A DNA stretch of 64,000 bases from Vulcanimicrobiales bacterium (GTDB lineage: Bacteria; Vulcanimicrobiota; Vulcanimicrobiia; Vulcanimicrobiales; Vulcanimicrobiaceae): contig JBBQQR010000002.1 in assembly GCA_038215615.1 (NCBI GenBank), forward strand, positions 1-64,000, given 5' to 3'. Position 1 is the stretch's first letter. Each line of letters begins with the position of its first letter. Shown one piece after another: positions 13,422 through 29,075 of this stretch. The translations under genes and the position numbers were made by a program. The notes below the pieces were generated by a model. It did not search any database, was not told the DNA's origin, and was given only the letters and a program-made list of their open reading frames with translations.

Positions 13422-13430
13422 CCGTGCCCG

Positions 13431-13458
13431 GCAAGGATGGCAGGGGGTGTTCTCGAAC
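13431..13458 (+). promoter_or_regulatory. Putative sigma-H-like promoter of bamA (AGG-N18-GAAC)
   Basis: GCAAGG, 18 nt, GAAC; same geometry as the site upstream of minC. Confidence 0.3.
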
Positions 13459-13554
13459 AGGCGGGGCGGGCCGAAACGGCGCGGGCGGCGGACGCGTTAC
13501 GGAGCTGACGCCACGAGCGTTAGACCACTCGTACTCTCAAGGAAGATATTGTTG

Positions 13555-15825
13555 ATGACCTCGAGCCTCCGGGGTGCGCGCGGCGTGCTCCAACGGTGTG
13601 CCGGCATCGTCCTCACACTGGCAACGATCGTTTCGCTGATGACGCCTACCCCTGCGATCTCCGCGACCGCGCCGCCGATCGTTTCGGTCGACGTCTCCGG
13701 AAACGTTCACGTGCCCACCGCGACGATCATGAACGTCATCGCGGCCAAGCCCGGCCAGGCCTACGATCCGAAGGTCGTGCAAGCCGACCTGCAGCGCATC
13801 TTCGCGCTGGGTTATTTTGCCGATCAGGCCGCGCCGCTGATCCGCCAGCGTCCCAACGGCATCGCGATCACCTACCGCGTGATCGAAAATCCGGTCATTA
13901 CGAAAATCAACTTTCAAGGAAACACGCACGTGCCGGCAGACACGCTGCTGGCGCTGATGGATACGTCGGTCGGCCAGGTGCTCAACACCAATACGATGCG
14001 GCAAGACTTCCTGAAGATCAACTCCTACTACGATCGCATCGGTTACGCCGGACAGCTGCCGTCGCACGTCACGAACCTCGACATCAGCAGTCAAACTGGG
14101 GCGGTCACCCTCGACATCAAGGAAGGCCTGACGATCACGGCCGTCAAGATCGGCGGCGACCCGGTGCTTCCGCCTAACTTGATTCTGCCGGTGCTCAACG
14201 TCAAGCCCGGCGTCGAGTATTCCGACGCGCTGCGCGATAAAGATTATCAGGCGCTGCAGACGCTCTACCAAGACAAGTTCAACTTGATCCTCGGCGGTTT
14301 TGAGGGTGGCATTGATGCCACCACCGTCGATCCGAAAGCCGGAACCGCCGCGGTGACCTACGATATCTATGTCGCGCGGGTCGGTTTGGTTCAAGTCACA
14401 GGCAACACGAAGACGAAGGACCAGGTCGTCCGGCGTCAGCTCGCGCTTCAGCCGGGAATGATCGTGACGAAGGCCGGCGTGCAGCGCGATTTGGAACGCT
14501 TGAACAACACGCAGTTCTTTTCGAAAGTCGACGTCAATCCCAAACCGTGTCCCGACGAAATGCAGAAAAAAGATCCGGGTTGCGTCGTTCTCGACTGGGT
14601 GGTCGTCGAGCAGAAGACCGCGCAGGCTTCGATCGGCGCGGGCTATTCGGGCGGCATCACGGGTCAAGGCCTGTACGGGACGGTCGGGTACAGCGACAAC
14701 AATCTGCACGGCACGGGCAACGGAGCGAGCTTCCAGTTTGAGCGCGGATCGCGCAGCTATGTCACGCAAGCGTCGATCACGATTCCCTACGTCGGCAACT
14801 CTGCCAAATCTCAGCGTTATAGTTTCGGCGCGACCATCTTTGCCAACGGCAACACGTATTTCTATCCAGTCTATACAACGGCCGTCGGCAACGCCGCGAC
14901 CGATCCGACGCAGCCCATTCCGGTAACGCTGCTGCCTTCCAACAATGCGGCGCTGCTCAGCGGCGTGGTTGCGACGAGCACCGCGAAGACCGCGGGCGTC
15001 TCGGTGAACGTGGGACGGCGCTTATCCGAGACGCTGCTGGCGCAGATCGGCATCAATGCGGAAAACGTGACGAACAGCACCACAGTGCCGTCGCCGTTTT
15101 TCTTCCAGTCGAGTCAGCCGAACATCATCGTCGGGCCGACGCCCGGACCGCTCAGCAACTTGACTGCGAACACGGGGAGCTTCGGCATTCAAGCGTCTTC
15201 GATCGCGAACATCAACACCGGACAGCCGTACCGCCTGAACTCGCTCTCGTTCTCGCTGGGATCGATCCCGGCCGCGACGCTCGACGACATCTTCAATCCG
15301 CGCCGCGGTGGAACGGTCTCGTTCAGCGAGACGGTCTCGACGCCGGCGATCGGGTCGAACTTCTCGTTCACCCAAAGCACGGTGGATGCGACCAGGTTCT
15401 TCCCGATTCTCAAGGACTCGACATTCGGTCTGCACGGTCAAGTGCGCGCCTCGACGGGTGCGATTCCGCCGAGCGCACTGTTCACGTTCTCCGATCAAAA
15501 CTTGCGCGGATACGACAGCGTCTACTACGGCACGGATACGGTGCTCGGACAGATCGAACTGCGCAAGCCGGTCACGGCCGACCGGAAATTCTCGGTCGCA
15601 GTCTTTGCGGATGAAGGCGGCTGGCGCGTGCGCGGTGCGGCTCCGCTGCTCGATCCCTACACGAACAGAATCATCGGATTCCCCGGTAACTGGTCGTACC
15701 TTGGTGATGTCGGCTTCGGATTGCGTTTCGACGTACCGCAGCTCGGCCTGCATACGATTCGTATCGACTTCGCGAAAGGTTCTAACGGCAATCACACCAG
15801 CTTCGGCATAGGCCAAAGCTTCTAG
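13555..15825 (+). CDS. bamA: Omp85/BamA outer-membrane protein assembly factor (about 3 POTRA domains plus barrel)
   Basis: Signal peptide; POTRA motifs (SGNVHV...DLQRIFALGYF, TGNTKTKDQVVRR); LRGY lid-lock motif; C-terminal FGIGQSF. Confidence 0.93.
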   Translation: MTSSLRGARGVLQRCAGIVLTLATIVSLMTPTPAISATAPPIVSVDVSGNVHVPTATIMNVIAAKPGQAYDPKVVQADLQRIFALGYFADQAAPLIRQRPNGIAITYRVIENPVITKINFQGNTHVPADTLLALMDTSVGQVLNTNTMRQDFLKINSYYDRIGYAGQLPSHVTNLDISSQTGAVTLDIKEGLTITAVKIGGDPVLPPNLILPVLNVKPGVEYSDALRDKDYQALQTLYQDKFNLILGGFEGGIDATTVDPKAGTAAVTYDIYVARVGLVQVTGNTKTKDQVVRRQLALQPGMIVTKAGVQRDLERLNNTQFFSKVDVNPKPCPDEMQKKDPGCVVLDWVVVEQKTAQASIGAGYSGGITGQGLYGTVGYSDNNLHGTGNGASFQFERGSRSYVTQASITIPYVGNSAKSQRYSFGATIFANGNTYFYPVYTTAVGNAATDPTQPIPVTLLPSNNAALLSGVVATSTAKTAGVSVNVGRRLSETLLAQIGINAENVTNSTTVPSPFFFQSSQPNIIVGPTPGPLSNLTANTGSFGIQASSIANINTGQPYRLNSLSFSLGSIPAATLDDIFNPRRGGTVSFSETVSTPAIGSNFSFTQSTVDATRFFPILKDSTFGLHGQVRASTGAIPPSALFTFSDQNLRGYDSVYYGTDTVLGQIELRKPVTADRKFSVAVFADEGGWRVRGAAPLLDPYTNRIIGFPGNWSYLGDVGFGLRFDVPQLGLHTIRIDFAKGSNGNHTSFGIGQSF

Positions 15826-17922: not shown

Positions 17923-18323
17923 AAAAACAGATTGTCTTCGTCGCCGCTCTGGGAGCGGCCACCCTCGCCGGCTGTGCCGGATCCACAAGCCCGATCGGCT
18001 TGGTCGACGTGCAACGGCTGACCGCGAATTGGCCGGTCTACACGAACGCGCAGAATCAGCTCGTGGCCGACCAGCGCGCCATCGCCGCAAGCAAGGGTTC
18101 CAACGCCGACAAACAGCGTCAGGTCGTGGCGTTGCAGCAGCGCTATTCGCAAATCTCCAACCAACTCGTTTCGCAGGTTCGCGCGGCAACGGCAAAAGTG
18201 GCCGGGCAAAAGCAGTTGAAGCTGGTCGTGACGCGCGAGTTCGTCGGATACGGTGGTACCGATATCACCGGCGACGTTGAAAAGCTGCTCGGCATCACCG
18301 AAAAACCGACGCCTTCGCCATAG
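17919..18323 (+). CDS. Short OmpH-like lipoprotein
   Basis: Lipobox LAGC; IGLVDVQRL...VGYGGTDIT. Confidence 0.75.
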   Translation: MKKQIVFVAALGAATLAGCAGSTSPIGLVDVQRLTANWPVYTNAQNQLVADQRAIAASKGSNADKQRQVVALQQRYSQISNQLVSQVRAATAKVAGQKQLKLVVTREFVGYGGTDITGDVEKLLGITEKPTPSP

Positions 18324-19345
18324 TGCTTGGAACGCTCGGCCAGCTGGCGCAGCGGCTCGGCGGCCGTGCGATTGGCGACGACACGTTCCACGTTTCGCGC
18401 ATTGCGGCGATCGACGACGCGGACTCCGAGACGCTCACGTTTGCTACGACGCCGTCCTATTTAGAAGAGGCGCTGAAATCGCGCGCCGGCGCCGTCCTCG
18501 TCGAGGAATCGTTGCTGGCACCTGAGTTGACGGAACGTCCCCGCAAACCGCTGGTCGCGGTACCTAACGCGCGCGCCGCGCTCGCGGCACTGCTCCAAAC
18601 CTTCGAACGTCCGCGTAAGACGGGCCCGTTCCGCCATCCGTCGGCATCGGTGGAGGCCGACGCGGTCGTGGGATCCGATGTATACATCGGCGCGCACGCC
18701 GTCGTCAGCTCGGGAGCGCGCATCGGCGCCCGCACCGTGCTCGAGGCCGGAGCCTACGTCGGCGCGCAGGCCACCATCGGTGACGGCGCCCTTCTGCATC
18801 CGCATTCGACGGTGCTCGACGGATGCACCATCGGCGATCGCGTGATTCTGCACAGCGGATCCGTGATCGGTTCGGATGGCTTCGGCTACGTTTTCATCGA
18901 CGGAAAATTTGAGAAGATCCCGCAAGTCGGTAATGTGGTGATCGGCAGCGATGTCGAGATCGGCGCGAATACGTGCGTCGACCGCGCGCAAACGGGCAGC
19001 ACGCACATCGGCGACGGAACGAAGATCGACAATCTGTGCCAGATCGGTCACAACTGCCGCATAGGCAAACACTGCGGCATCGCCGCGGAAGCGGGTCTGG
19101 CGGGCAGCACGATTCTGGGAGATTACGTTCTGGTCGGCGGCAAGGCCGGATTCTCCGGGCATCTCACGGTCGGATCGCGCGCGAGAATCGGCGGCGGCAG
19201 CCAGGTTTGGAAAGACGTACCCGAAGGCGCTTTTTACAGCGGCGTTCCGGCTCGTCCGCACGACCAGCAAATGCGTCGAGAGGTCATGATTCGCAACCTG
19301 GCTAAGCTCGTCGCCCGTGTCGACGCGCTCGAAAAACGTCAGTGA
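18323..19345 (+). CDS. lpxD: UDP-3-O-acyl-glucosamine N-acyltransferase
   Basis: Hexapeptide repeats; GSDGFGY, KIPQVG, KIDNLCQIGHN. Confidence 0.97.
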   Translation: MLGTLGQLAQRLGGRAIGDDTFHVSRIAAIDDADSETLTFATTPSYLEEALKSRAGAVLVEESLLAPELTERPRKPLVAVPNARAALAALLQTFERPRKTGPFRHPSASVEADAVVGSDVYIGAHAVVSSGARIGARTVLEAGAYVGAQATIGDGALLHPHSTVLDGCTIGDRVILHSGSVIGSDGFGYVFIDGKFEKIPQVGNVVIGSDVEIGANTCVDRAQTGSTHIGDGTKIDNLCQIGHNCRIGKHCGIAAEAGLAGSTILGDYVLVGGKAGFSGHLTVGSRARIGGGSQVWKDVPEGAFYSGVPARPHDQQMRREVMIRNLAKLVARVDALEKRQ

Positions 19346-20184
19346 CGCACTACCAAACCACGCTGCGTGAACCCCTCGCCTTTGAAGGCGTAGGTTTGCA
19401 TTCGGGCGCTCCCTGCCGAGTCGAAATTCGGCCCGCGGCTCCCGGCACGGGATTCCGCTTTGTGAGCTCGGGTGTCGAGATACCGGCGCTCGCAGAATAC
19501 GTCGTGGAAACCGCGCGCGCGACGGTTATCGGTAAAGACGGCGTCACCATTTCGACGGTCGAGCACCTGCTGGCCGCACTCTTCGGAATGGGTGTTTCAA
19601 ACGCGGAGCTGGCGGTGGACGGTCCGGAGATTCCGGTTGCCGACGGCAGCGCAAAAGTTTTCGCCGAAGCGATCGCCGCTGCCGGCATTGCAACCCAGCG
19701 CGAAGCGCGCGAAACTTTTGTTCCGGCGTCCCCCGCGTTCGCGCGTGACGGCGATCGCGTGGTGACGGTTCTGCCGGCCGGCGCGCTGCGCGTGAAGTTC
19801 GTCGGGGATTACGCGCCGCCGATCGGAACGCAATATTTCGACGGCGAGATCGATCCCGAAATGTTCCTCAAAGAGATCGCCGGCGCACGCACGTTCGGCT
19901 ACGTTCACGAAGTCGAAGCGTTGCTCAAGCGCGGCCTCGCCAAAGGCGGAACGCTGGAGAACGCGCTCGTCTTTGCGCCCAACGGTCCACTGCAGCCGCT
20001 GCGTTGGGAAAACGAGCCGGTTCGCCACAAGGTACTGGACTTGCTCGGAGACTTCGCGCTGCTCGGCGCCTGGCCGCAGTGCGAGGTCGTTGCGATCAAG
20101 AGCGGTCACAAACTGCACTGCATCATGACGCAACAGCTGCGCAGGCAAATCGGCGGCAGGCTTTCCGCGAAAGCGAGCTCGTAG
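19342..20184 (+). CDS. lpxC: UDP-3-O-acyl-GlcNAc deacetylase
   Basis: Motifs GVGLHSG, TVEHLLAAL, ARTFG, HKVLDLLGD and KSGH. Confidence 0.97.
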   Translation: MTHYQTTLREPLAFEGVGLHSGAPCRVEIRPAAPGTGFRFVSSGVEIPALAEYVVETARATVIGKDGVTISTVEHLLAALFGMGVSNAELAVDGPEIPVADGSAKVFAEAIAAAGIATQREARETFVPASPAFARDGDRVVTVLPAGALRVKFVGDYAPPIGTQYFDGEIDPEMFLKEIAGARTFGYVHEVEALLKRGLAKGGTLENALVFAPNGPLQPLRWENEPVRHKVLDLLGDFALLGAWPQCEVVAIKSGHKLHCIMTQQLRRQIGGRLSAKASS

Positions 20185-20657
20185 TGGCCGAACTCGACAT
20201 CCGGCAGATCATGGAGATACTGCCGCACCGCTATCCGCTGCTGCTCGTCGATCGCATCCTGGAATTGGAAGCCGGCGTGCGCGCGCGCGGCTATAAGAAC
20301 ATCACAAATAACGAACCGGTCTTCACCGGTCACTTTCCGGGGAACCCGGTGCTGCCCGGCGTTTACATGATCGAAGCGCTGGCGCAACTCGGCGGGTGCG
20401 TCGTCCTCGAACCCGGCGAGTTTTCGCGCAAGATACCGTACTTGGCCGGGATCGATCGCGCAAAGTTTCGTCGTCCGGTGATTCCCGGAGACTGCTTCAT
20501 GATGGAAGCGACCCTAATCAAGCACAAGCGCAACATCGGTTGGGTGCAGGCGGAAGGGCGCGTCGGCGACGAGTTCGCCGTATCGGCCGTGCTAACGTTT
20601 TCGATCTCTTCGGATCCCCGGCTGCGCGGTTATGATGCAGCCGTCTTGCACGTCTAA
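20184..20657 (+). CDS. fabZ: 3-hydroxyacyl-ACP dehydratase
   Basis: LPHRYPLLLVDRI and GHFPGNPVLPGVYMIEALAQ; the GTG overlaps the lpxC stop. Confidence 0.97.
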   Translation: MAELDIRQIMEILPHRYPLLLVDRILELEAGVRARGYKNITNNEPVFTGHFPGNPVLPGVYMIEALAQLGGCVVLEPGEFSRKIPYLAGIDRAKFRRPVIPGDCFMMEATLIKHKRNIGWVQAEGRVGDEFAVSAVLTFSISSDPRLRGYDAAVLHV

Positions 20658-20666
20658 GGCCGGCGC

Positions 20667-21437
20667 TTGATCCACCCAACCGCGATCGTTCACCCGAACG
20701 CGAACGTTGACCGCGGCGTTGAGATCGGACCGTTTTGCATCGTGGGTGAAAACGTTTCTCTTGGGCGCGGATCGGTGCTGCAGTCGCACGTCGTTGTCAA
20801 CGGATGGACGACGATCGGCGAAGACTGTAAGATCTTCCCGTTTGCGACGATTGGCGCGCCGTCGCAGGACAAGAAATATCAGGGCGAGCGCGCCTACACG
20901 CGGATCGGCAGCCGGACGACGGTGCGCGAATACGTCAGTATCCAGCGCGCCACGGGCGAAGATCAGGTAACGTCGGTTGGCGACGACTGCTTGTTCCTGG
21001 CCTACGTGCACATCGCGCACAACTGCGTCGTCGGCAACAGCGTGACGATGAGCAACCTCGCGCAACTGGCCGGGCATTGCATCATCGAAGACAACGCGCT
21101 GATCGGCGGCATGACGGCGCTGCATCAGTTTACGCGCGTCGGATCCTATGCCATGGTCGGCGGCGCGAGCCGCCTTACGCGCGACGTACCGCCGTTTTTT
21201 TTGGTGGCGGGAAATCCGGCCGAACCGTACGGTCTCAACAGCGTCGGATTGCGGCGCGCCGAGTTCTCGGCCGACGACCGCGCCGAGATCAAGAAATTCT
21301 ACAAGATCCTGTACGGGTCGAAATTGAATCTTTCACAGGCAATCGAGACGATGAAGGCCGAGGCTGCGACCGAGTCGGGCAAACACATCATCGCGTTCTT
21401 GGAAGCCGACTCTCAGCAAGGCATTCTCCTGAAGTGA
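20667..21437 (+). CDS. lpxA: UDP-GlcNAc O-acyltransferase
   Basis: IHPTAIV, QDKKY, HIAHNC, LAGH, HQF, GLNSVGLRR. Confidence 0.97.
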   Translation: MIHPTAIVHPNANVDRGVEIGPFCIVGENVSLGRGSVLQSHVVVNGWTTIGEDCKIFPFATIGAPSQDKKYQGERAYTRIGSRTTVREYVSIQRATGEDQVTSVGDDCLFLAYVHIAHNCVVGNSVTMSNLAQLAGHCIIEDNALIGGMTALHQFTRVGSYAMVGGASRLTRDVPPFFLVAGNPAEPYGLNSVGLRRAEFSADDRAEIKKFYKILYGSKLNLSQAIETMKAEAATESGKHIIAFLEADSQQGILLK

Positions 21438-21458: not shown

Positions 21459-22574
21459 ATGCGCTATTTTTTCTCGACCGGCGAAGCCTCGGGAGAACTG
21501 ACGGCCGTCGCGCTGGCCGAAGCGATCGCGCGGCTCGATCCGGACGCGCGATTCGAGGGAATCGGATCGGACCGCATGCGCGCGTCGGGCTTTACGGTCC
21601 GGCAAGATAACGGCGGATGGGCGAGCATGGGGCCGCTGGCGGCGATTCCGCGTATTCCCAAACTGCTGGCGATCGGTTTGCGCATTGCGATGCAACTCGT
21701 GCTCTCGCCGCCCGATCTCGTGGTGCTGGTCGACTTCGGCGCATTTAACGTTCGGCTTGCTAAAGTTTTACGCGCGCTCGGATTTCGTAAGCCCATTATC
21801 GATCTCTATCCGCCCGGAACGTGGCTCGACGATCCCAAACGTGCTAAAGACGTCGCGCGAGTCGCCACTCCTCTAACCGCGTTCGCGCACCAGCGTGATT
21901 TTTTTGCGGCGCTCGGATTGCCGATCGCCTACTTCGGACATCCCTTGGCTTCGCGTTACGCGATGCGCCCGCTGCGCTCGGCGCCTCCCTCCGACGGCGG
22001 CACGGTTGCGATTTTACCGGGCAGCCGTCCGGGCGAACTGACATTTCACGTTCCGCTCCTGCTGCGCGCGTTTGCGCTCTTGAAAGCCAAGCGTCCGCGC
22101 CTGCGCGCCGTTGCCGGCCCGGCGGATGAACGCGGCAAACAGTACATAAAGGATGCCGCGGCTCGCGAAGGCATTGCGGATCTTTCCTTCGCACCCGGAA
22201 CGGGCACCGCGATCGGAGACGCCGACGCGGCGTGGGTGTCGTCCGGGACCGCGGTGCTCGAGTGCGCGCTCTCGGGCGTACCGGTCGTGGCGCTCTACGT
22301 CGTGTCGCGGCGTTTGGAAGGCTACGCGCAGCGTCTGCGCGCCGGCCGCTTCGTGACGCTTCCGAATCTGGTCATGCGCAGGGAGATCGTGCCCGAACTG
22401 CTGCAAGAGCTGGCGACGCCCGAAGGTTTGGCTCGGGAAATGGACGCGCTGCTGCGCGATCCGTCAGAGCAGTATGCTGAGTTTTCCGCGCTGCGCGAAG
22501 CGCTCGGCCCGCCCGACGCCATCGAGCGCTGCGCGGCCTTTGCCTTCGAGCTGGCGAAGAGCGGAACGGGCTGA
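21459..22574 (+). CDS. lpxB: Lipid-A-disaccharide synthase
   Basis: GEASGE, VDFGAFN, GHPL, LPGSR, SGTAVLE, LPNL, PELLQ. Confidence 0.92.
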   Translation: MRYFFSTGEASGELTAVALAEAIARLDPDARFEGIGSDRMRASGFTVRQDNGGWASMGPLAAIPRIPKLLAIGLRIAMQLVLSPPDLVVLVDFGAFNVRLAKVLRALGFRKPIIDLYPPGTWLDDPKRAKDVARVATPLTAFAHQRDFFAALGLPIAYFGHPLASRYAMRPLRSAPPSDGGTVAILPGSRPGELTFHVPLLLRAFALLKAKRPRLRAVAGPADERGKQYIKDAAAREGIADLSFAPGTGTAIGDADAAWVSSGTAVLECALSGVPVVALYVVSRRLEGYAQRLRAGRFVTLPNLVMRREIVPELLQELATPEGLAREMDALLRDPSEQYAEFSALREALGPPDAIERCAAFAFELAKSGTG

Positions 22575-23314
22575 TGCGCATCTATCACACGTCCGATTTG
22601 CACGATCACCGCGGCATTGCGCCGCGGCTGCGTTCGCTGCGGCAGGACTCGCCGGGCTTGCTGTTCGATTGTGGCGACTCGCTGCGAGGCAGCCAAACCG
22701 TCTATCATCGCCAAGAGCCGGTCATCGCCGAGATCGATAGCGCCGGATACGACGCGCAGGCAATCGGCAACCGCGAATTTCATTACCTGTTCGGGTGTTT
22801 ACGCGCGCGCGCCGCGCAGATGCAGCATCCGCTGATTTGCAGCAACTTGGTCGATCTCAAGGGACGCGAACTTCCGTTCTCGCGCTTTCACACGATCGAG
22901 TATGCCCCGCCGGGAGAGCGGCCCGTTCGCGTTCACCTCGCGGCAATGCTCGTCACGCAATATCCGGCCGGGAGTCCGTGGGAACGAATCTTCGGGTGGC
23001 GTTTTTTGGATCCGCAGACCGTGCTGCGCGAATACATCGAGAGCGTTCCGGCGGGCGACGCACTGATCGTGCTCTCGCATTTGGGCTTGCACCGCGACCG
23101 CGAACTCGCCGTGGGTAATCCGCGCATCGACCTGCTGCTCGGCGGACACAGTCACGACACGCTCTTCGAGCCCGAAGTGCACGGTGGCGTGCCGGTCGTG
23201 CACGCCGGTCCGTACGGAGAGTACGTTTCGCAGACCGACCTCGATTACGACGTAACGCGCGCTCGCTGGTCGCTTGCGTCGTTCGCGCTGGTTCCGCTGC
23301 TGGCGGCGGCATGA
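22574..23314 (+). CDS. Cytoplasmic calcineurin-like metallophosphoesterase (UshA/5'-nucleotidase N-domain-like); candidate UDP-2,3-diacylglucosamine hydrolase
   Basis: Motifs TSDLH, DCGD, GNRE, LSHLG and GGHSH; no signal peptide; overlaps lpxB and the next gene. Confidence 0.8.
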   Translation: MRIYHTSDLHDHRGIAPRLRSLRQDSPGLLFDCGDSLRGSQTVYHRQEPVIAEIDSAGYDAQAIGNREFHYLFGCLRARAAQMQHPLICSNLVDLKGRELPFSRFHTIEYAPPGERPVRVHLAAMLVTQYPAGSPWERIFGWRFLDPQTVLREYIESVPAGDALIVLSHLGLHRDRELAVGNPRIDLLLGGHSHDTLFEPEVHGGVPVVHAGPYGEYVSQTDLDYDVTRARWSLASFALVPLLAAA

Positions 23315-24474
23315 AATCCGTGCTGTTCGTTTCGAACGGGCACGGAGAAGCGGCGATCGCGGCGCGCATAGCGCGCGAAATAGAGAAGCTGTCGGATCTG
23401 GCGTGCGACCACTTGGCGCTCGTCGGCCCTTCGACGAGCTCGGGACAGGCTCAAGAAGCGATCTCGAACCCTTGGGCCCCGCTGCGCGACGTCGGTCCGC
23501 GCAGAAAAATGCCGAGCGGCGGAATCGTCGCGATGGGAAATTTCCGCAATCTCGCGCGAGACGTCGCGGCCGGCCTGGGTTCACTGACGATCGCGCAGTG
23601 GCGCTTTCTCGCGCGCAGCGGGCGCGATTATGCCGCCACTGTTGCGGTCGGCGATGCGTTCGCGCTCTTCATGGCGTTGCGCGCGGGCGCGCCGGTTGTT
23701 TTTGTGGGAACGGCGAAGAGCGTGTACGTCGCGCCGTACGGCCGTCTCGAAGAAGGCCTCATCCGGCGGGCATCCGCTGCATTCGTGCGCGATGCTGCGA
23801 CGGTACAGGCCCTCGCAGCTCATGGCGTTCGCGCACGCGACGCGAACGTGATGGCGGATCTCGGCGTCGCCGAGCAGGCGCAGCGCCCAACTGTGGCAGG
23901 CGACCCGCTCGTCGCTATTTTCCCGGGCAGCCGCGACGACGCATACGAGCAGGCAGCGTTCTTGCTGCGCGTGCTCGCCGGCGCACAAACGCTGCGGGCG
24001 GGAATCAGAGGTGTGCTTTCGGTCGCGCCCGGGTTGAAAGCGCAGCGATTTGCCGCCGCTTTGGAAAATGCGGGACTGAGGGTCGTTACCCGCGCCGATT
24101 CGCTCGAACCGTTTTCTGTGTATGCCGGGGGCATCGAGATCGCGCGCGCCTGGACGGGAGAGATCGGCGCGGCGATCGAGCTCGCGCAGTTAGTGCTCGG
24201 GCAAGCCGGAACGGCGAACGAGGCCGCGGCCGCCGCGGGCGCTCCTGTGATTGCATTTGAAGGCGGCGGATGGTACCGGCGCCGCCAAGTCGCGCTGCTG
24301 GGTGGGGCGCTGCGCGTACTTCCGCGCAACGAACAATCGGGCGCGCGTGAAGTGGCCGCACTCTTGCAAGACGAGCCCGAACGCGAACGAATGGCGCGCA
24401 CCGGCCGCGAGCGCTTGGGAGCGCCGGGCGCGGCGGCCCGCATCGCCGAAGAGATCGTACGGCGTTGCGCCTGA
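23311..24474 (+). CDS. Lipid-A-disaccharide synthase-related GT-B glycosyltransferase (SNGHGE family)
   Basis: Motifs SNGHGE, MPSGG, VGD, GTAKS, FPGSR and AGTANE, typical of the cyanobacterial LpxB-related family. Confidence 0.8.
   Translation: MKSVLFVSNGHGEAAIAARIAREIEKLSDLACDHLALVGPSTSSGQAQEAISNPWAPLRDVGPRRKMPSGGIVAMGNFRNLARDVAAGLGSLTIAQWRFLARSGRDYAATVAVGDAFALFMALRAGAPVVFVGTAKSVYVAPYGRLEEGLIRRASAAFVRDAATVQALAAHGVRARDANVMADLGVAEQAQRPTVAGDPLVAIFPGSRDDAYEQAAFLLRVLAGAQTLRAGIRGVLSVAPGLKAQRFAAALENAGLRVVTRADSLEPFSVYAGGIEIARAWTGEIGAAIELAQLVLGQAGTANEAAAAAGAPVIAFEGGGWYRRRQVALLGGALRVLPRNEQSGAREVAALLQDEPERERMARTGRERLGAPGAAARIAEEIVRRCA
23427..23450 (+). repeat. REP-like palindromic element inserted in-frame (encodes PSTSSGQA)
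   Basis: CCCTTCGACGAGCTCGGGACAGGC shares CCCTTCGACGAG with the intergenic copy at 8084-8095. Confidence 0.6.
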
Positions 24475-25676
24475 CGCGAGGATTACCGCTCGCGTTTGCG
24501 CTGACGAATTTCGCTATCCCGTTTTTTCCCGCGTTCATCACGCTGACGGCGGTGACCGTACCCGGCGTTTCGCTCGTGCCGCGCTGGTTCGCCGTAACGC
24601 TGCTCGTCGTGATGGCGGTCGTGGCGATCTACGCAACAATGACGCTGCTCGTTCCGCCGCTCCAAACGCCGGCAACGTTTTGGCCGCTGCTCGCCTGGAT
24701 CGGTGCGGCGCTGCTTTCCGCGGCACTGGGTTTCGATCCGCGCGGCGGCCTGCTCTTCATCGGCATCTTCGGACTCGCGCTGGTTTGGCATCTGGCGATC
24801 CTGCGCTATTACCGGGCTCCCGGCGTGAGCCGCGCGATTTTTACCAGTTACCTGCTCTCGGGCGGATTAGCTTCGCTGGCCGCGATCGTCATGGTCATCA
24901 CGCGTGTTCCGGTCTCAGAATATGCGATCGGACACGGACGCGCGATCGGGACGTTCATTCTGCCGGGCGAACTGGCGGGTTATCTCATTATTTTCTTGCC
25001 GATCTCGTACGCGGTCGCGCGCGTTTCGCAGGACGCGCGTTTACGCGTGCTGGCGTGGGCCGCGCTCGCAGCGGGCGCTGCAGCATTTTTGATGACGTTC
25101 TCGCGCGCCGGATGGATGGGACTGGCGGCGGCGATCGCGTTCTACATCTTTTTCGGCGGCGGCATCCGCCGCCGTTACGCTCCGCTCATTCTGCTGGGCG
25201 GGCTTGCTGCGGTGCTCGTGGTTTTTAACGCGCATCACAATCCGTCGGAGAACTATACGCGTCTTTCCATCTGGCAGGCCGGCATCGAAATCGTACGGCG
25301 CTTTCCGCTGACGGGCGTTGGGCCGTTTAATTTCGCCCGCATCTACCCGCTCGTGCGCTTGCCCGACGGCGATGCGGCCGCATTTCACGCGCATAGCTTT
25401 CTCCTGACGATCTTTGCCGAATTGGGCCTCGTGGGACTGCTGGCGGTACTCTTCGCCTGGTGGCGCTTTGCGCTCGAACTGCTGCGCCGGCTGCGCGGCG
25501 CGTCGCCGGCGAACTCGACCATCGCGCTCGCGGTTGCGGCGGGACTCGTCGGCACGTGGGTGCAAGGGCTCATCGATACCGTGAGCGTCGTCATCTTCGG
25601 ACTGTGGCTGCCCTCAATGGCGCTCGCATTGGTCACGGCCACGGACGGACTCGGGGAGCAACCGCGATCGTCATGA
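24465..25676 (+). CDS. O-antigen ligase (WaaL/Wzy_C) family membrane protein
   Basis: Many TM helices; TFSRAGW, RLSIW, PLTGVGPFNF, HAHS...AELGLVG. Confidence 0.88.
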   Translation: MRLTRGLPLAFALTNFAIPFFPAFITLTAVTVPGVSLVPRWFAVTLLVVMAVVAIYATMTLLVPPLQTPATFWPLLAWIGAALLSAALGFDPRGGLLFIGIFGLALVWHLAILRYYRAPGVSRAIFTSYLLSGGLASLAAIVMVITRVPVSEYAIGHGRAIGTFILPGELAGYLIIFLPISYAVARVSQDARLRVLAWAALAAGAAAFLMTFSRAGWMGLAAAIAFYIFFGGGIRRRYAPLILLGGLAAVLVVFNAHHNPSENYTRLSIWQAGIEIVRRFPLTGVGPFNFARIYPLVRLPDGDAAAFHAHSFLLTIFAELGLVGLLAVLFAWWRFALELLRRLRGASPANSTIALAVAAGLVGTWVQGLIDTVSVVIFGLWLPSMALALVTATDGLGEQPRSS

Positions 25677-26215
25677 AAAGTATTGGCCCGCTTCTGCTTG
25701 CGGCTGCGGCGCTGGGCGCGTGCAATCCTCAGCCGCTGCGCAATTCCGCGCCGGCGCCGGCGCCGACGGCGCAGGGCGTGCCGCCGCTCAAGATTACCGG
25801 TCACGGCAGCGCGGCATCGCCCGTCCGGACGTTCGAGCAGTCGGGTAACCGGAAAGTTTACGAGCTGCTGGCGCGTTCTTACGTCAGCCGCTCCGCGCAC
25901 AACGTCGCCCAAGCGACGTTTCACGAAGCAACCGTGACGTTCTATGATAGGGACGGCTCGTCGCTGACCGCGCAAGCTCCGCAAGCTGCGGTTGACGAAC
26001 GCACCAAACAAGTCACCCTTTCCGGCGGCGTTCAGGCGCACACGAGCACGGGTGCGGCGCTCACGTGCGACCGCTTGACCTACGATCGCGAGACGGGCAT
26101 GCTGGCGGGCAGCGGCAACGTGCGCATGACGGCCGACCAGAACGGATCGCACGAGGTGCTGACCGGCAACACGTTCACGTCCGATATCAAATTGACTCGA
26201 ATGGTGATCAAGTGA
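25673..26215 (+). CDS. lptC: LptC/LptA-like beta-jellyroll LPS transport lipoprotein
   Basis: Lipobox [13 protein letters not shown]...LTCDRLTYD...GSGNV repeats; directly before lptB. Confidence 0.75.
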
Positions 26216-26967
26216 CGGCGCAGCAAAACCCGGCTCGACAGATAAACATACGCGACCTGCGTAAGCGTTACGGCGAGCGCACCGTCGTCGACGGCGTCAG
26301 CGCCGAAGTACGCACGGGAGAGATCGTCGGACTGCTCGGTCCCAACGGTGCGGGCAAGACGACCACGTTTTATATGGTCGTCGGGTTGGTCAAAGCCGAC
26401 GGCGGTTCGGTTCTGCTCGAGACGGATGGCGGCGAGATCGATCTGACGTCTGCGCCAATGTATCAGCGGTCGCGCCGCGGCATCGGCTACTTGGCCCAGG
26501 AAAACTCGATCTTCCGCAAGCTCTCCGTCGGTGACAACATCCGCCTGATTTGGGAAATGCATGGCGTGCCGCGCGAAGAGCAAGAAGCCCGCATTGGGCC
26601 GCTGCTCGAAGAATTCGGACTGCTGCACCTGATAGAAGCGCGCGGCGACAGCCTTTCGGGCGGCGAGCGCCGGCGCGTCGAGATCGCGCGTTCGCTGGCC
26701 ACCGAGCCGGCGTTCCTACTGCTTGACGAACCATTCACCGGAATCGATCCGATCGCGGTGGCCGATATCCAAGCGATGATCCGGCAGCTGCGCGACCGCG
26801 GCCTCGGCATCTTGATTACGGATCATCAGGTGCGCGAGACGCTGGCGATCGTGGACCGCGCGTACATTCTCAATAACGGACGGATTGAAGTATCCGGATC
26901 GGCGCAAGAAGTGCTCGACAGTCCGGTCGCGCGCAAGTTTTATCTGGGCGAAGGATTCCGGCTTTGA
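26212..26967 (+). CDS. lptB: LPS export ABC transporter ATP-binding protein
   Basis: [53 protein letters not shown]. Confidence 0.96.
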
Positions 26968-28100
26968 TTCAAGCCGCCGCCCGGCCCGCGCCGTTCAGGT
27001 TCACGATTCTCGACCGCTACATGCTCAACGAACTGCTGGGACCGTTTCTTTTCGGGCTCTCGGCGTTCACGCTGATCTTCGCAGCCGCGCAGATCATCGC
27101 GATTGGCCGCGCGGTTTCGGAAGCGCACGCACCGCTTTGGGCCGCCATCGAAGCGTTTCTTTGGCAGCTGCCTTCAATGGTCGTGCTGACGATCCCGATG
27201 GCTCTGCTACTGGGAACGCTGCTGGCGATTCAGCGGCTCTCCAGCGAGAGTGAAATCACGGCGATGAACGCCGGTGGTATTACGTTCATACGCATAATAG
27301 TGCCGCTGCTCGTCGCCGGATTCGTGATGTCGATCGTCAACCTCATCTTGCAAGAGGCGATCGTTCCCTACGCGCAGACGCAGTTCACGATCATCGAAAA
27401 CACGGTGATTAATCACACGAGCGCCTTTGCCAGCGATACGACGGTGAATGCTCCGCTGCCGGGAGGCGGGCACCAGATTACGTTCTTCAACGCGTACGAC
27501 CCCAACACGCATGGACTGATGCAGGTCACGCTCGTGCAATACGACCGGGCGGGCAGTCCGACACAGATCATCTTCGCCGACCGCGCGGACTTCGCCGCCG
27601 AGAAATGGACGCTCGATAACGCGCGCATTTACCGCTTCAGCGGCCCCGGCGGACAAAGTATCGTCGGATCGCAGACTCCGACACTGCAAGTCGAACTCGG
27701 CCAATCCCCGGCGGAGATCGCCAAACGGGCGGCGGGAAACAATCCCCTGAACATGAGCCGGAAAGAGCTTGGCGAAATCATCCGGACGGGGCAGCTCACA
27801 CCTTCCGAGCTGCGCAAATATTGGATGGCCTATCAAGAAAAGCTCGCGCAGCCGTTTGCCTGTTTCGTCTTCACGCTCATCGCGGTGCCTTTTGGGATCC
27901 GCTCGGTGCGCGGCGGCGGTAGTGCGAGTCTGGGATTTGGGTTAGCGGTGCTCATCGCGTTTATTTACTACGTCGTTCAGACGGTTTTCACGGGAATAGG
28001 CGAAGCCGCACCGTTCATCGCGGCACTTGCGGCGTGGATGCCGAACCTGATCTTCACCGCCATCGGAGCGTACCGGCTGCGCCGGGCGGCGCTTATTTAA
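26964..28100 (+). CDS. LptF/LptG family permease
   Basis: [14 protein letters not shown], periplasmic jellyroll, AWMPNLIF. Confidence 0.93.
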
Positions 28101-29075
28101 ATGAATTTTGTCGATCTGCTCCGCGGCGCCGGCACCATTCTCTTCATCGTCGCGCTGGCCGGTCTCATCGCTTACGCGGGCGACCGCATCGGCCACCAAG
28201 TCGGAAGAAAGCGCTTGACGTTGCTCAACATCAGGCCGCGGTATACGTCGACGATCATCGCGGTTGCGACGGGAATGATCATCGCATTGATCGTCACCCT
28301 CGCCGCAATTTTCGCTTCGAATCAGGTGAAGACGGCGTTCTTCCGCCTCAATCAGATCAACGCCGAGATCGCTCAGGCGCAAGCGCGTGCGACCGAAGCC
28401 GAGAGCAAAGTCAACAATGGGCGGCTCGTCGTCGGCGTCGGCACGCCGATGGGCTACAATCCGGTACTGATTCCGCAAGACGCTTCGCCACAAGTTCGGC
28501 GGCGGCTCGTGAAGCAGCTCTACGATCAAACCGTTTCCTATGTAAACCAAGTCTATCCGCCGCTCGGATTGCGTTCGTTCAAGCCTCCGGCGAACGTACA
28601 GCAGGTGCTTGACAGCTACGCTGATAGTCCTGAGATGCGAGCTGCACTGGCTGAAGGTGACGTGCTCGTTCTGGCGGCAGCGGATCAGAATCTCTACGCG
28701 GCGGGCCGCCCCGGGGCGGTGGGCGACGAAGTGCATTTCGGAATCACGCCGCCGATCCCCGATCGCCTGATGTACAAGCGCGGCGATCTGATCGCTTATG
28801 AAAGCGTGCCCAGCGGAAAGAACGTGAACGCGCAGCTGGCGCTCTACGAATTGCTGGCGAACTTCGTTCCGCAAAAAGCGACCAGCGACGGCTTCCCGCC
28901 GTATTTCGTGAGCAACGTGAAGCCCGTGCAGTCGTTGCCACCGTCGACCGCACAAATGCAGACGATGCTCGCTAACGGTACGGGAAACTATGTCCTGTCG
29001 GCATTTGCCGCCACCGACATCTATCCGCACACGCTGCAGCTGCCGGTCGTCGTCGTACTTCAGAAGGTTCCGTGA
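28101..29075 (+). CDS. DUF3084 domain membrane protein
   Basis: N-terminal GLIAYAGDRIGHQVGRKRLTLLNIRPRYT signature. Confidence 0.8.
   Translation: MNFVDLLRGAGTILFIVALAGLIAYAGDRIGHQVGRKRLTLLNIRPRYTSTIIAVATGMIIALIVTLAAIFASNQVKTAFFRLNQINAEIAQAQARATEAESKVNNGRLVVGVGTPMGYNPVLIPQDASPQVRRRLVKQLYDQTVSYVNQVYPPLGLRSFKPPANVQQVLDSYADSPEMRAALAEGDVLVLAAADQNLYAAGRPGAVGDEVHFGITPPIPDRLMYKRGDLIAYESVPSGKNVNAQLALYELLANFVPQKATSDGFPPYFVSNVKPVQSLPPSTAQMQTMLANGTGNYVLSAFAATDIYPHTLQLPVVVVLQKVP

Follow-up and report, generated by a model that had tools for sequence, protein, structure and literature searches.

A putative short, Kdo-free lipopolysaccharide operon in an Eremiobacterota-like bacterium, with candidate roles for a metallophosphoesterase and a TIGR03492-type glycosyltransferase

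In described lipid A pathways, the lipid X-forming step is carried out by LpxH, LpxI or LpxG, and the UDP-sugar hydrolase UshA cleaves UDP-sugars at the same bond. Okada 2016 (PMC5016852) reports a His-to-Arg change unique to LpxH, whose Arg80 contacts the lipid X phosphate, and Bohl 2018 (PMC5785501) describes how the PGSR and GTA residues of Escherichia coli LpxB hold the pyrophosphate and ribose of UDP. Cyanobacterial LPS is reportedly phosphate-free according to Opiyo 2010 (PMC3087551).

Here we analyzed a window of 64,000 nucleotides (the whole stretch of DNA studied) from a genome of 2.21 Mb in 54 contigs (completeness 100, contamination 0.8). The host of the operon is an uncultured soil-type bacterium with an Eremiobacterota-like genome. 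Taken as a whole, the evidence leans modestly towards the central gene block of this window being the center of a short Raetz-pathway LPS operon that works by the mechanism outlined below.

Gene order and missing genes in the host genome

Gene families in the window were assigned with Pfam and NCBIfam profile searches:

8166..13421, plus strand: TamB-like protein, opening the outer-membrane/LPS supercluster (PF04357, 79.9 bits)
13204..15825, plus strand: BamA/Omp85 with POTRA repeats (PF07244, 130.5 bits; PF01103, 74.7 bits)
15831-16634, 16567-17922 and 17919-18323, plus strand: three OmpH/Skp-like proteins in tandem (PF03938; 58.4, 31.4 and 34.2 bits)
18323..19345, plus strand: lpxD (PF04613 and hexapeptide repeats)
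19342..20184, plus strand: lpxC (PF03331, 286.8 bits)
20004..20657, plus strand: fabZ, overlapping lpxC as listed (PF07977, 97.3 bits)
20667..21437, plus strand: lpxA (PF13720 and hexapeptide repeats)
21459..22574, plus strand: lpxB, lipid A disaccharide synthase (PF02684, 171.4 bits)
22574..23314, plus strand: metallophosphoesterase (MPE), 246 aa, cytoplasmic, stand-alone UshA-type (PF00149, 23.3 bits)
23311..24474, plus strand: TIGR03492-type LpxB-related GT-B, 387 aa, soluble (TIGR03492, 200.3 bits; no Pfam match)
24465..25676, plus strand: Wzy_C/IctB-like polytopic membrane protein (PF04932, 72.1 bits)
25673..26215, plus strand: LptC-like lipoprotein (TIGR04409, 42.9 bits against a cut-off of 38)
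26065..26967, plus strand: lptB-like ABC ATPase (PF00005, 109.4 bits)
26964..28100, plus strand: lptF/G permease (PF03739, 277.8 bits)
28101..29075, plus strand: DUF3084 protein (PF11283, 81.3 bits)

The true starts of fabZ and of the lptB-like ORF probably lie downstream of those listed, since the FabA domain begins only at residue 73 and the ATPase domain at residue 76. The LpxB protein contains the PGSR and SGTA..E motifs and scores 152.3 bits against TIGR00215, under the equivalog cut-off of 190.25. A DUF3084 gene 3′ of lptFG is a conserved syntenic feature of Eremiobacterota and diderm Bacillota loci.

The genes for LpxB, MPE, the TIGR03492 glycosyltransferase (GT), the Wzy_C protein and LptC are start/stop-coupled, and the block is set between lpxA and lptB. 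Read directly from the sequence, lpxB and MPE share TGATG with a 1 nt overlap, and both MPE/GT and Wzy_C/LptC share ATGA; GT and Wzy_C overlap by 10 nt, with a TTG start of Wzy_C at 24465. The ATGA shared with the Wzy_C stop revises the LptC start to the ATG at 25673, from which the protein carries a lipoprotein signal ending in LGAC. The original observation of four overlapping genes between lpxA and lptC thus agrees with the sequence in its genes, coordinates and junctions.

The cluster had also been described as devoid of lpxK, waaA, kds and msbA, and none of these was found by Pfam among its 21 plus-strand ORFs (8166-32590). Across the whole genome (completeness 100), searches found no LpxK, WaaA, LpxH, LpxI or LpxL/M, and of the Kds set, KdsA and KdsB were searched and were likewise absent. 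Two DAHP_synth_1 matches considered as KdsA are DAHP synthases, and the better CTP_transf_3 match, considered as KdsB, is IspD; the weaker CTP_transf_3 match, on contig C16, scores 20.2 bits, under the cut-off. Among 151 genomes of the phylum (G000 and the unpublished G127 among them), WaaA exceeded the cut-off in one, a genome with 9% contamination, and LpxK in one, marginally; most genomes surveyed were metagenome bins, where absences weigh less than in the complete host genome. Both the host genome and its phylum retain lpxA/C/D/B and lpt without LpxK, WaaA or Kdo synthesis, so that the LPS pathway of the host very probably lacks Kdo and the 4′-phosphate. The pathway is not the compact one originally envisaged: core genes, LpxB2 (a third LpxB-like family), MsbA-like exporters (on contigs C11 and C1) and O-antigen genes all lie on contigs other than that of the cluster.

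The metallophosphoesterase as a candidate for the lipid X step

The hydrolase was passed over by the earlier reader of this DNA, and probably represents the missing LpxH-type step. Its predicted model (pLDDT 96.7) matches best the N-domains of 5′-nucleotidase/UshA (Z 26-27), with LpxH at Z 10.3. The nearest solved relative is UshA, so identified from depositor names; the family profile matches UshA at E 5e-28, and the GNRE of MPE aligns with the GNHE of UshA. This GNRE, as well as D8, H10, D35, N66, R67, H169, H192 and H194, is invariant in 26/26 orthologues. MPE resembles LpxH in its invariant His-to-Arg change, but differs from it in having no TIGR01854 match and no helical lipid-binding insertion.

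MPE is somewhat more probably than not a UDP-2,3-diacylglucosamine pyrophosphatase making lipid X. A less probable alternative is that it makes no lipid X and could act as a nucleotide phosphatase clearing the UDP/UMP of the transferases, or as a lipid A phosphatase. This alternative would fit the closest relatives of MPE being 5′-nucleotidases, the missing LpxH helical domain, the fusion or adjacency of MPE to the GT and not always to lpxB, and the many short-pathway genomes without MPE. Nevertheless, the arginine that replaces histidine binds a sugar-linked phosphate in LpxH, UshA itself cleaves the same bond in UDP-sugars, no other candidate for the lipid X step occurs in a 100% complete genome, and MPE never stands alongside LpxI.

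This last pattern comes from 50 TIGR03492 genomes of other lineages, picked for diversity from the 80 best loci (the remaining 30, mostly Eremiobacterota, were left out). Short MPE, as counted from the search listing, occurred in 11 and LpxI in 17 of them with no co-occurrence, an exclusivity that tracks phylum boundaries and is statistically weak. LpxH was above the cut-off in none of the 50, and 22 had neither short MPE nor LpxI nor LpxH, so that MPE cannot account for the missing lipid X step throughout these genomes.

The TIGR03492 glycosyltransferase and its possible acceptors

The window GT aligns over residues 5-384 with profile positions 1-394 of 396 of TIGR03492, its score being under the curated cut-off of 219.2 bits, and it is placed within the family tree. 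Its SNGHGE motif occupies residues 8-13, and Asp14, kept in at least 90% of the family, is replaced by Ala; 16 columns, among them D115, S207, T301 and E304, are invariant in 44 diverse members. In hhalign, TIGR03492 matches LpxB (probability 99.15, E 3.9e-19, 343 columns) with an identical PGSR and an aligned GTA motif. The predicted model (pLDDT 92.9) has a GT-B fold, to which MurG, PimA and WaaA all match at Z 18-21, a GT-B-generic likeness.

TIGR03492 matches occur in all 151 phylum genomes at E<=0.001, 86 of them above the cut-off. Among the 50 other-lineage genomes, LpxC is present in 48, WaaA in 5, LpxK in 4 and KdsA, as strong matches, in 3; four carry WaaA, LpxK and TIGR03492 together. 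The family thus tracks genomes in which WaaA is rare (1/151 and 5/50), though it is not in every case exclusive with WaaA. The family occurs in cyanobacteria, as had been stated, with two Planktothrix loci and, above the cut-off, the Synechococcus elongatus control; this control contains TIGR03492, LpxC and KdsA, and no signal of WaaA or LpxK.

Synteny was read from 92 TIGR03492 loci, neighbors being counted where the flank sufficed (84 or 79 loci). An lpx or lpt gene is held by 43/92 loci, and the GT lies inside lpx-lpt clusters in several phyla, such as the Halanaerobiales order lpxI-lpxB-LpxB2-GT2-msbA-TIGR03492...lptA/C-lptB-lptFG. Directly 5′ of the GT is MPE in 36/84 and an MsbA-type ABC gene in 12/84, and directly 3′ is Wzy_C in 12/79; the Planktothrix, Brevinematales, Sericytochromatia and Deinococcales loci had no LPS neighbors. 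Natural fusions include MPE::GT, as well as Wzy_C::GT, GT::GT2 and LpxK::GT (2 clusters each), with further fusions of Wzy_C (three) and GT2 (two) with the GT. In addition to the two database clusters, two metagenome contigs carry an intact LpxK::TIGR03492 ORF of 708 aa, in the order lpxC-fabZ-lpxA-...-lpxI-lpxB-LpxB2-msbA-asnB-[fusion]-CTP_transf_3-...-Wzy_C, and no WaaA occurs in the 22 kb read of one such locus (L123). These fusions and the four genomes with WaaA, LpxK and TIGR03492 indicate that the family is not a plain LpxK/WaaA substitute.

The GT quite likely functions in LPS assembly in the host, and we slightly favor the lipid A disaccharide, or the first derivative made from it, as its substrate; that it is exactly the 6′-OH (WaaA-position) transferase is doubtful. 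LpxB2 is just as good a candidate for carrying out the first core transfer, and it could be, though this is rather unlikely, that LpxB2 adds the first sugar to the disaccharide and TIGR03492 works at a later stage or at another site of the molecule. Roles available to TIGR03492 would then be a second inner-core sugar, a branch or the acceptor sugar for the Wzy_C ligase. Such an order would suit the closer relationship of LpxB2 to LpxB (hhalign E 1.3e-34), the LpxB::LpxB2 fusions in four loci (L074, L076, L078 and L087), the adjacency of the two in Halanaerobiales, Xenobia and Bacillota loci, and the association of TIGR03492 with GT2, Wzy_C and MsbA, which belong to later steps. LpxB2 also occurs in 44/50 TIGR03492 genomes, and leads a heptose/GT9/GT2 core cluster of the host (gmhA-hldA-LpxB2-GT2-GT9-GT2-GT9) from which TIGR03492 is absent. 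Nevertheless, the search at E<=1e-30 gave no LpxB2 in six of the 50, which all keep TIGR03492 and LpxC: three Brevinematales, a Melainabacteria, an Atribacterota and a small Margulisbacteria bin. In addition, the LpxK fusion sets TIGR03492 beside a lipid A-level step.

Deinococcota carry the family in 51/81 genomes, and LpxC was found in 0/13 one-copy genomes tested, in contrast to 7/7 two-copy genomes; the Deinococcus radiodurans control likewise has TIGR03492 and no LpxC. A family common in genomes without lpx genes, which would count against the original prediction, is thus seen in this one phylum, so that neither the fold nor the family is bound to lipid A in itself. Together with the loci lacking LPS neighbors, this would agree with a general membrane-glycolipid transferase whose acceptor is not lipid A and whose clusters reflect co-regulation of envelope genes. 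This is improbable given LpxC in nearly all carriers elsewhere, the LpxK and Wzy_C fusions, and the coupling to lpxB-MPE and Wzy_C-lptC in the window. Furthermore, every Deinococcota copy falls in a single clade that contains an internal duplication, the extra copy occurring only with LpxC, which points to a lineage-specific paralogue and fits a local change of function. Least probable of all, TIGR03492 might be a UDP-releasing hydrolase or an epimerase-like GT-B acting on UDP-2,3-diacylglucosamine without transfer to a sugar acceptor, yielding a phosphate-free LpxB acceptor and lipid A. UDP-GlcNAc 2-epimerases are among its best fold matches (Z 24.6) and weak sequence matches (E 0.035), 22/50 carriers lack a known lipid X-forming enzyme, and the cyanobacterial report of phosphate-free LPS would agree; yet such a step would be redundant in the 17 LpxI and 11 MPE genomes that keep the family, the GT is fused to LpxK, whose product is phosphorylated, and its fold matches are GT-B-generic.

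Proposed route and comparison with known systems

According to the favored reading, lipid A would be made by LpxA, LpxC, LpxD and LpxB alone, without a 4′-kinase, Kdo or an LpxL-family late acyltransferase. LpxA/C/D would produce UDP-2,3-diacylglucosamine (step 1), part of which the cytoplasmic MPE would split into lipid X and UMP, with Arg67, where His is usual, holding the sugar-side phosphate (step 2), and LpxB would join donor and lipid X into disaccharide-1-phosphate (step 3). TIGR03492, as an LpxB-derived inverting GT-B with PGSR and GTA UDP-binding motifs, would then use a UDP-sugar to glycosylate this disaccharide-1-phosphate or an immediate derivative at the cytoplasmic face, beginning, or helping to begin with LpxB2 and the GT2/GT9 enzymes of contig C5, a Kdo-free inner core (step 4). 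The product would be flipped by an MsbA-like exporter (step 5), joined to polysaccharide by the Wzy_C/IctB-like protein (step 6) and exported via LptC/B/FG (step 7). The Wzy_C protein, with about 10-12 hydrophobic segments and 80.1 bits against TIGR00947 (IctB), under the cut-off, is a reasonably probable candidate for a WaaL-type ligase. Gene content, absences, homology, conserved motifs, synteny, fusions and co-occurrence are direct observations, from which we infer all substrates and the places of steps 2, 4 and 6 in the route.

That the second GT-B replaces LpxK/WaaA on the disaccharide, as first proposed, agrees with its tracking of LpxK/WaaA-poor genomes, its lpx-lpt clusters and its fusions, but the LpxK fusions and the four genomes with WaaA and LpxK argue against a simple replacement, and LpxB2 is a rival candidate. 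MPE and the TIGR03492 GT, two orphan enzymes, probably fill gaps in a poorly understood short pathway. A short Kdo-free pathway is already known in cyanobacteria, and what the present locus adds to it is the predicted assignment of enzymes.

Envelope supercluster and its LpxB-related glycosyltransferase

According to Pfam and NCBIfam profile searches, a single long envelope supercluster occupies 8.1-32.6 kb of the window on the plus strand, with the gene order given below.

Gene order of the envelope supercluster
First part (+): tamB, bamA, three skp/ompH, lpxD, lpxC, fabZ, lpxA, lpxB, metallophosphoesterase (MPE)
Second part (+): glycosyltransferase without Pfam match (GT), Wzy_C, lptC, lptB, lptF/G, DUF3084, RuvX-like
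End (+): unknown gene, TPR protein, GT4

Direct reading and profile searches recovered the four genes that the original prediction had placed at 21459-25676, namely lpxB, the 246-aa MPE (22574-23314), the 387-aa GT-B glycosyltransferase (GT, 23311-24474), and the polytopic Wzy_C protein (24465-25676). The junction sequences contain TGATG common to lpxB and the MPE gene, ATGA common to the MPE and GT genes, and a 10-nt overlap between the GT and Wzy_C genes; ATGA is also common to Wzy_C and lptC, which shifts the lptC start to 25673. Because of these shared or overlapping start-stop junctions, the five genes lpxB-MPE-GT-Wzy_C-lptC are translationally coupled. The probable start of the LptC-like gene (25673-26215) is the ATG that overlaps the stop codon of Wzy_C, and the predicted product is a lipoprotein with signal, unlike E. 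coli LptC, which is membrane-anchored. The bamA-lpxD interval (15831-18323) holds three OmpH/Skp-like genes in a row, the middle one unusually long (451 aa), and DUF3084 (28101-29075) stands behind lptF/G both in Eremiobacterota and in many loci of diderm Bacillota (L024-L084), a conserved synteny. The genome itself (2.21 Mb, 54 contigs, completeness 100, contamination 0.8) is not of cyanobacterial lineage.

The GT carries the motif SNGHGE at residues 8-13 and matched 0 Pfam families at E<=0.001, PF02684 (LpxB) included. Its score on NCBIfam TIGR03492 ('lipid-A-disaccharide synthase-related protein', a hypothetical equivalog) was 200.3 bits, below the curated cut-off of 219.2, and 196.2 bits in a six-frame DNA search, by which 65 of the 151 phylum genomes were also sub-cut-off. 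The alignment is full-length, with residues 5-384 spanning profile positions 1-394 of 396, and in trees the GT nests among Eremiobacterota members of a family clade split from LpxB with 100% SH-aLRT support. The GT keeps each of the 16 columns that are invariant among 44 diverse members (including N9, E13, G88, G114, D115, D161, D183, S207, G297, G300, T301, and E304), and position 14 is Ala where the other members have a nearly invariant Asp.

Profile-profile comparison (hhalign) related the GT to LpxB over 343 columns (probability 99.15, E 3.9e-19). PGSR is identical and aligned between the two, the GT(A) motif is aligned with its Glu offset by one position, and the invariant D115 falls within one or two alignment positions of the proposed LpxB base. 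As described by Bohl (2018, PMC5785501), P198-G199-S200-R201, T277, and E281 of E. coli LpxB bind the UDP pyrophosphate and ribose, and D98 is the proposed base. The AlphaFold model (pLDDT 92.9) has a standard GT-B fold, whose Foldseek and VIA-align matches are generic GT-B proteins (UDP-GlcNAc 2-epimerase, CalG1, MurG, PimA, and WaaA) that say nothing on donor or acceptor; E. coli LpxB is not among the matches listed, which is no evidence of difference. Neither membrane segment nor signal peptide was predicted. Since the UDP-binding motifs of LpxB and the invariant Asp are kept and no membrane segment is present, the GT is read as a predicted cytoplasmic, inverting UDP-sugar-dependent transferase that is catalytically active and works at the membrane surface like LpxB. 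Two genes upstream of it is a bona fide lpxB (171.4 bits), and a true LpxB stood beside the GT in every genome examined, so the GT must have another job. Automatic protein-atlas names for the GT, as for the third LpxB-like family (LpxB2), go only as far as the type 'lipid-A-disaccharide synthase family', and a literature search under TIGR03492 and 'lipid-A-disaccharide synthase-related' found no paper, broader searches listing none on this family either.

Kdo-free lipid A genes and distribution of the family

Whole-genome profile searches found no LpxK, WaaA, LpxH, LpxI, or LpxL/M-type acyltransferase in this genome of completeness 100; the LpxH model TIGR01854 had no match at E<=0.001, and the WaaA domain PF04413 (Glycos_transf_N) matched neither the GT protein nor anything else in the genome. 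For Kdo synthesis the search covered KdsA and KdsB. Two DAHP_synth_1 genes scored 368 and 426 bits as DAHP synthases and 96-105 bits on the Kdo-8-P synthase model (cut-off 314), while the better CTP_transf_3 match is IspD and a second, on contig C16, is sub-threshold. The genome thus has lpxA, lpxC, lpxD, and lpxB and is without lpxH, lpxK, waaA, lpxL/M, and KdsA/KdsB. This four-enzyme lipid A pathway is known from Cyanobacteria and Dictyoglomi, whose LPS is said to be without Kdo, heptose, and phosphate (Opiyo et al. 2010, PMC3087551). The original prediction was right in its general idea, an LPS route independent of Kdo and of the kinase, but as a pattern this was already known.

As predicted, profile searches of the lpx cluster found no MsbA. 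Two MsbA-like exporters lie outside the cluster, one of them on contig C11 (500.6 bits on TIGR02203, cut-off 602) followed directly by a PMT_2/ArnT-like membrane glycosyltransferase gene (L121:5722-8969). In a Saganbacteria locus (L049:525-4712) an LpxL-like gene stands between the MsbA-like exporter and the PMT_2/ArnT-like gene. This pairing hints at periplasmic sugar modification of lipid A. Two further genes recur in lpx clusters of other lineages, as listed below: a PEMT/ICMT-type membrane methyltransferase in bins of Melainabacteria, Xenobia, and Clostridia, the present genome having a homologue on contig C25 near 23421-23990, and a GFO/IDH/MocA oxidoreductase between fabZ and lpxA in several lineages, which is absent from the window cluster. 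The former may resemble Leptospira LmtA, which methylates the 1-phosphate of lipid A, and the latter may be an enzyme of the GnnA type that serves diamino-sugar lipid A.

Accessory genes recurring in lpx clusters
PEMT/ICMT-type methyltransferase: L035:4678-5283, L058:4120-4767, L031:188-778, L074:7241-7894
GFO/IDH/MocA oxidoreductase: L035:1774-2781, L074:11216-12154, L058:16-672

TIGR03492 was found by profile search in all 151 phylum genomes, 86 of them above the cut-off; this sample includes the present genome and the unpublished G127, so the counts rest partly on the latter. WaaA exceeded its cut-off in 1/151 (a bin with 9% contamination), and LpxK likewise in 1/151, with a marginal score. 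The sources of the closest GT homologues are named Candidatus Baltobacteraceae, Vulcanimicrobiaceae, and Candidatus Rubrimentiphilum, and the titles of related loci read Vulcanimicrobiota or Eremiobacteraeota. Scanning one genome per species gave at least 529 stretches encoding TIGR03492. The best 80 of these came from Eremiobacterota, Xenobia, Melainabacteria, Sericytochromatia, Margulis-/Saganbacteria, Armatimonadota, and many Bacillota bins, together with Aerophobetes, Desantisbacteria, Omnitrophota, Atribacterota, Brevinematales, Deinococcales, and Planktothrix. From them 50 genomes were chosen for diversity, and the 30 left out were mostly Eremiobacterota. LpxC is present in 48 of the 50, WaaA in five (four strong, one at 28 bits), and LpxK in the same four that have strong WaaA; three of these four also encode a strong Kdo-8-P synthase. 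The expected anti-correlation of the GT with WaaA is therefore present (WaaA missing in 45/50 and 150/151) and not absolute, in samples that, like the 81 Deinococcota genomes below, are not independent.

The occurrence of the SNGHGE family in cyanobacteria, which the original prediction gave as known, was borne out by two Planktothrix loci and by the Synechococcus elongatus control, in which TIGR03492, LpxC, and KdsA are present and WaaA and LpxK gave no signal. Because its Kdo-8-P synthase is above the cut-off with no WaaA/LpxK signal, S. elongatus may have some Kdo transferase of another kind. A bin titled Halanaerobiales bacterium (G188, locus L084) had no WaaA, LpxK, or KdsA match, whereas full lpxK/waaA/kds sets are described in cultured Negativicutes and Halanaerobiales (Antunes 2016, PMC5007114); lineage differences or bin incompleteness may account for the contrast.

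Neighbours of the GT were compared in 92 loci, of which 84 had enough flank for the upstream and 79 for the downstream gene. The MPE is directly upstream in 36/84, all from Eremiobacterota, Xenobia, Melainabacteria-type, or unclassified bins, and an MsbA-type ABC gene in 12/84, from Bacillota, Sagan/Margulisbacteria, and Omnitrophota; Wzy_C is directly downstream in 12/79, and some lpx or lpt gene occurs in 43/92. A Halanaerobiales bin has the order lpxI-lpxB-LpxB2-GT2-msbA-TIGR03492-...-lptA/C-lptB-lptFG, a Saganbacteria bin has msbA-lpxL-ArnT-like genes just upstream of the GT, and an Aerophobetes bin has TIGR03492-Wzy_C. The Planktothrix, Brevinematales, Sericytochromatia, and Deinococcales loci show the GT without LPS neighbours. 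Natural fusions join the GT to the MPE, to Wzy_C (five clusters), to GT2 (four clusters), and to LpxK (two clusters). With the lpxK model and with that of TIGR03492, the LpxK::GT protein scores above or near the cut-off; two metagenome contigs (L123 and L124, 9998-12124) encode it as an intact ORF of 708 aa. Its locus reads lpxC-fabZ-lpxA-HAD-lptFG-lpxI-lpxB-LpxB2-msbA-asnB-[LpxK::GT]-CTP_transf_3-...-Wzy_C, with the KdsB-like CTP_transf_3 gene directly downstream of the fusion on L123 and no WaaA within the 22 kb read there (on L124 the fusion ORF alone was checked). Several L123 genes (lpxC, lpxB, and the KdsB-like gene) appear frameshifted.

In Deinococcota, TIGR03492 is above the cut-off in 51/81 genomes. 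LpxC was found in 0/13 tested one-copy genomes and in 7/7 tested two-copy genomes, and all seven LpxC-bearing genomes with a copy count have two copies. All Deinococcota copies form one clade in the tree; the LpxC-linked copy (98% support), which has GT2 genes as its neighbours, is sister to the copy of the LpxC-less genomes. A paralogue independent of lipid A therefore exists in this phylum, which weakens any claim of family-wide lipid A specificity, while the perfect tracking of LpxC by the extra copy independently supports an LPS role of the other branch. Commonness in genomes without lpx genes, which the original prediction regarded as contrary to it, thus applies to the one-copy Deinococcota, whereas the extra copy follows LpxC. 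LpxC was seen in ten Deinococcota genomes (G208, G209, G214, G233, G243, G253, G261, and the bins G186, G196, and G198), so some members of this phylum seem to make LPS although its well-known members do not.

Candidate roles of the transferases, the phosphoesterase, and the ligase

Profile-profile comparison links LpxB2 (~410 aa) with LpxB at E 1.3e-34 and with TIGR03492 at E 3.7e-27; LpxB2 has an N-terminal NSPGE of its own, keeps PGSR, and carries PGTNTAE. It occurs in 44 of the 50 chosen TIGR03492 genomes. Loci of Halanaerobiales, Xenobia, and Bacillota have it beside LpxB, and at four loci (L074, L076, L078, and L087) the two are fused. The present genome has one copy of 404 aa, without Pfam or NCBIfam match, in a core cluster on contig C5.

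LpxB2 loci and the core cluster
LpxB2: L084:2038-3270, L058:2952-4190, L074:7896-10343, and 27 more loci
C5 core cluster, L120:8997-16045, minus strand: gmhA, heptose-7-P kinase (rfaE domain I, 358.6 bits), LpxB2, GT2, GT9 heptosyltransferase, GT2, GT9

Because this gmhA/kinase/GT9 cluster lies in a genome without Kdo, the organism very probably builds a heptose-containing core with no Kdo beneath. The route is not the compact one proposed, since its LPS genes extend beyond the window to LpxB2 and the core cluster on C5.

The original prediction had the GT glycosylate the lipid A disaccharide in place of LpxK/WaaA. The GT is indeed present where WaaA and LpxK are missing; against a simple replacement stand the LpxK fusions and the four genomes with both WaaA and LpxK. 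Addition of a sugar at the 4'-OH instead of LpxK was rejected as a general role, since LpxK::GT fusions exist. The CTP_transf_3 gene behind the LpxK fusion, and the KdsA of Synechococcus elongatus, had suggested a CMP-Kdo transferase; for the present genome this role was set aside, given the missing KdsA/KdsB and the kept UDP-type PGSR, and it could still hold in other lineages. A serious rival is that LpxB2, rather than TIGR03492, has the role that was assigned to the latter. The exact mechanism assigned to the GT is plausible and under-determined by sequence, which alone cannot tell whether TIGR03492 or LpxB2 makes the first linkage, nor with which sugar. Very probably TIGR03492 itself belongs to the LPS enzymes and works near lipid A.

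The MPE, a candidate lipid X-forming enzyme, has all metallophosphoesterase metal ligands, and its GNRE, where the superfamily has GNH(D/E), is invariant in 26/26 orthologues. Okada et al. (2016, PMC5016852) describe this His-to-Arg change as confined to LpxH, whose Arg80 clamps the lipid X phosphate. The MPE model (pLDDT 96.7) matches the N-domains of 5'-nucleotidase/UshA at Z 26-27 (rmsd 2.3-2.9 over about 230 residues) versus Z 10.3 with only 160 residues aligned for LpxH 5B49, and lacks the four-helix, lipid-binding insertion of LpxH. In a search with the family profile, E. coli UshA scored E 5e-28 and its GNHE lined up with GNRE; the match covers residues about 30-320 of 500-565-residue targets, the UshA C-terminal substrate-binding domain being missing. 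Because of the UshA-type fold and the lack of a TIGR01854 match, the MPE is not an LpxH. A short MPE, judged from ORF sizes and positions, occurs in 11 of the 50 chosen genomes and LpxI in 17, with no overlap, and LpxH above cut-off in 0/50; 22/50 lack all three, which makes the MPE a solution for certain lineages at most.

The Wzy_C protein scored 72.1 bits on PF04932 (gathering score 31.7) and 80.1 bits on IctB TIGR00947 (cut-off 366.4), still its best NCBIfam match, and has about 10-12 hydrophobic segments. Two further Wzy_C proteins occur in the genome, one within an O-antigen-like sugar cluster and the other beside a GT2 gene. Among these three, ligase and polymerase are not separable by sequence alone; the copy in the O-antigen-like cluster is more likely the polymerase, and for the ligase the window copy is the leading candidate, given its place between the GT and lptC and the GT fusions elsewhere. 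The same operon position and fusions suggest that the IctB family could work in LPS ligation, and its role in carbon uptake has been doubted (PMC9477826).

Put together, these assignments raise the possibility, in our view an unlikely one as a whole, that Terrabacteria-type diderms finish lipid A by a shared alternative in which two LpxB-derived UDP-sugar transferases stand in for LpxK/WaaA, together with a UshA-derived MPE and an IctB ligase. This would cover Eremiobacterota, Cyanobacteria and their non-photosynthetic kin, Margulis/Saganbacteria, Armatimonadota, many diderm Bacillota, and LPS-bearing Deinococcota. TIGR03492 would add the first core sugar at the disaccharide 6'-OH and LpxB2 a second lipid A-proximal sugar; the MPE of Eremiobacterota, Xenobia, and Melainabacteria would be a fourth, independent lipid X-forming pyrophosphatase, converged on the LpxH Arg; and the IctB family would be the LPS ligase of this pathway, not a carbon transporter. 

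The operon sets candidates for lipid X formation and for joining core to lipid A side by side, and fusions, synteny, presence/absence, and the LpxC-tracking paralogue narrow the problem to three small soluble proteins. If the enzyme assignments are right, the minimal LPS pathway would have to be redrawn for much of bacterial diversity, the debate on the ancestral outer membrane would gain new input, such LPS would have its low endotoxicity explained, and IctB, which is used in crop engineering without known function, would gain a likely role. Should the assignments fail, what is left is an lpx-lpt operon, well conserved and of the short type already known.

Comparison with known systems

LpxB (GT19; PF02684, TIGR00215; E. 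coli structure 5W8X) and the GT have in common full-length homology, the GT-B fold, PGSR and GTA..E, an Asp near the position of the proposed base, and a place in the same operon; the GT differs in its N-terminal motif (SNGxGED versus GE-SGD) and in forming a separate clade. WaaA/KdtA (GT30; PF04413) shares the inverting GT-B fold (Z 18.5) and a similar place in the gene order, and waaA often adjoins lpxK and kdsB in other bacteria. However, no relation is detectable by Pfam, and its donor is CMP-Kdo, whereas the GT has a UDP-type pyrophosphate motif.

The MPE resembles LpxH (TIGR01854; PDB 5B49) in the metallophosphoesterase fold, the His-to-Arg change in GNH(D/E), a length of ~240 aa, cytoplasmic location, and membership of a lipid A operon, and it occurs in genomes without LpxH and LpxI. 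UshA/5'-nucleotidase (1USH, 1HP1) is its best match in both sequence and structure; UshA, named a UDP-sugar hydrolase, cuts the same bond as LpxH. Unlike UshA, the MPE comprises the N-terminal domain only, is cytoplasmic since it has no signal peptide, and has GNRE for GNHE. Chlamydia LpxG differs from the MPE in keeping GNHD and in having a membrane helix (Young 2016, PMC4807358).

With WaaL ligase and cyanobacterial IctB the window protein shares a polytopic build, a Wzy_C domain in a large loop, and a place between the last cytoplasmic GT and lptC, although it falls far below the IctB equivalog cut-off. Like the cyanobacterial four-enzyme pathway, the present Eremiobacterota genome is without Kdo genes; it differs in including the MPE, which Cyanobacteria do not have, and in encoding heptose synthesis and GT9 genes, in contrast to the heptose-free LPS described for Cyanobacteria.
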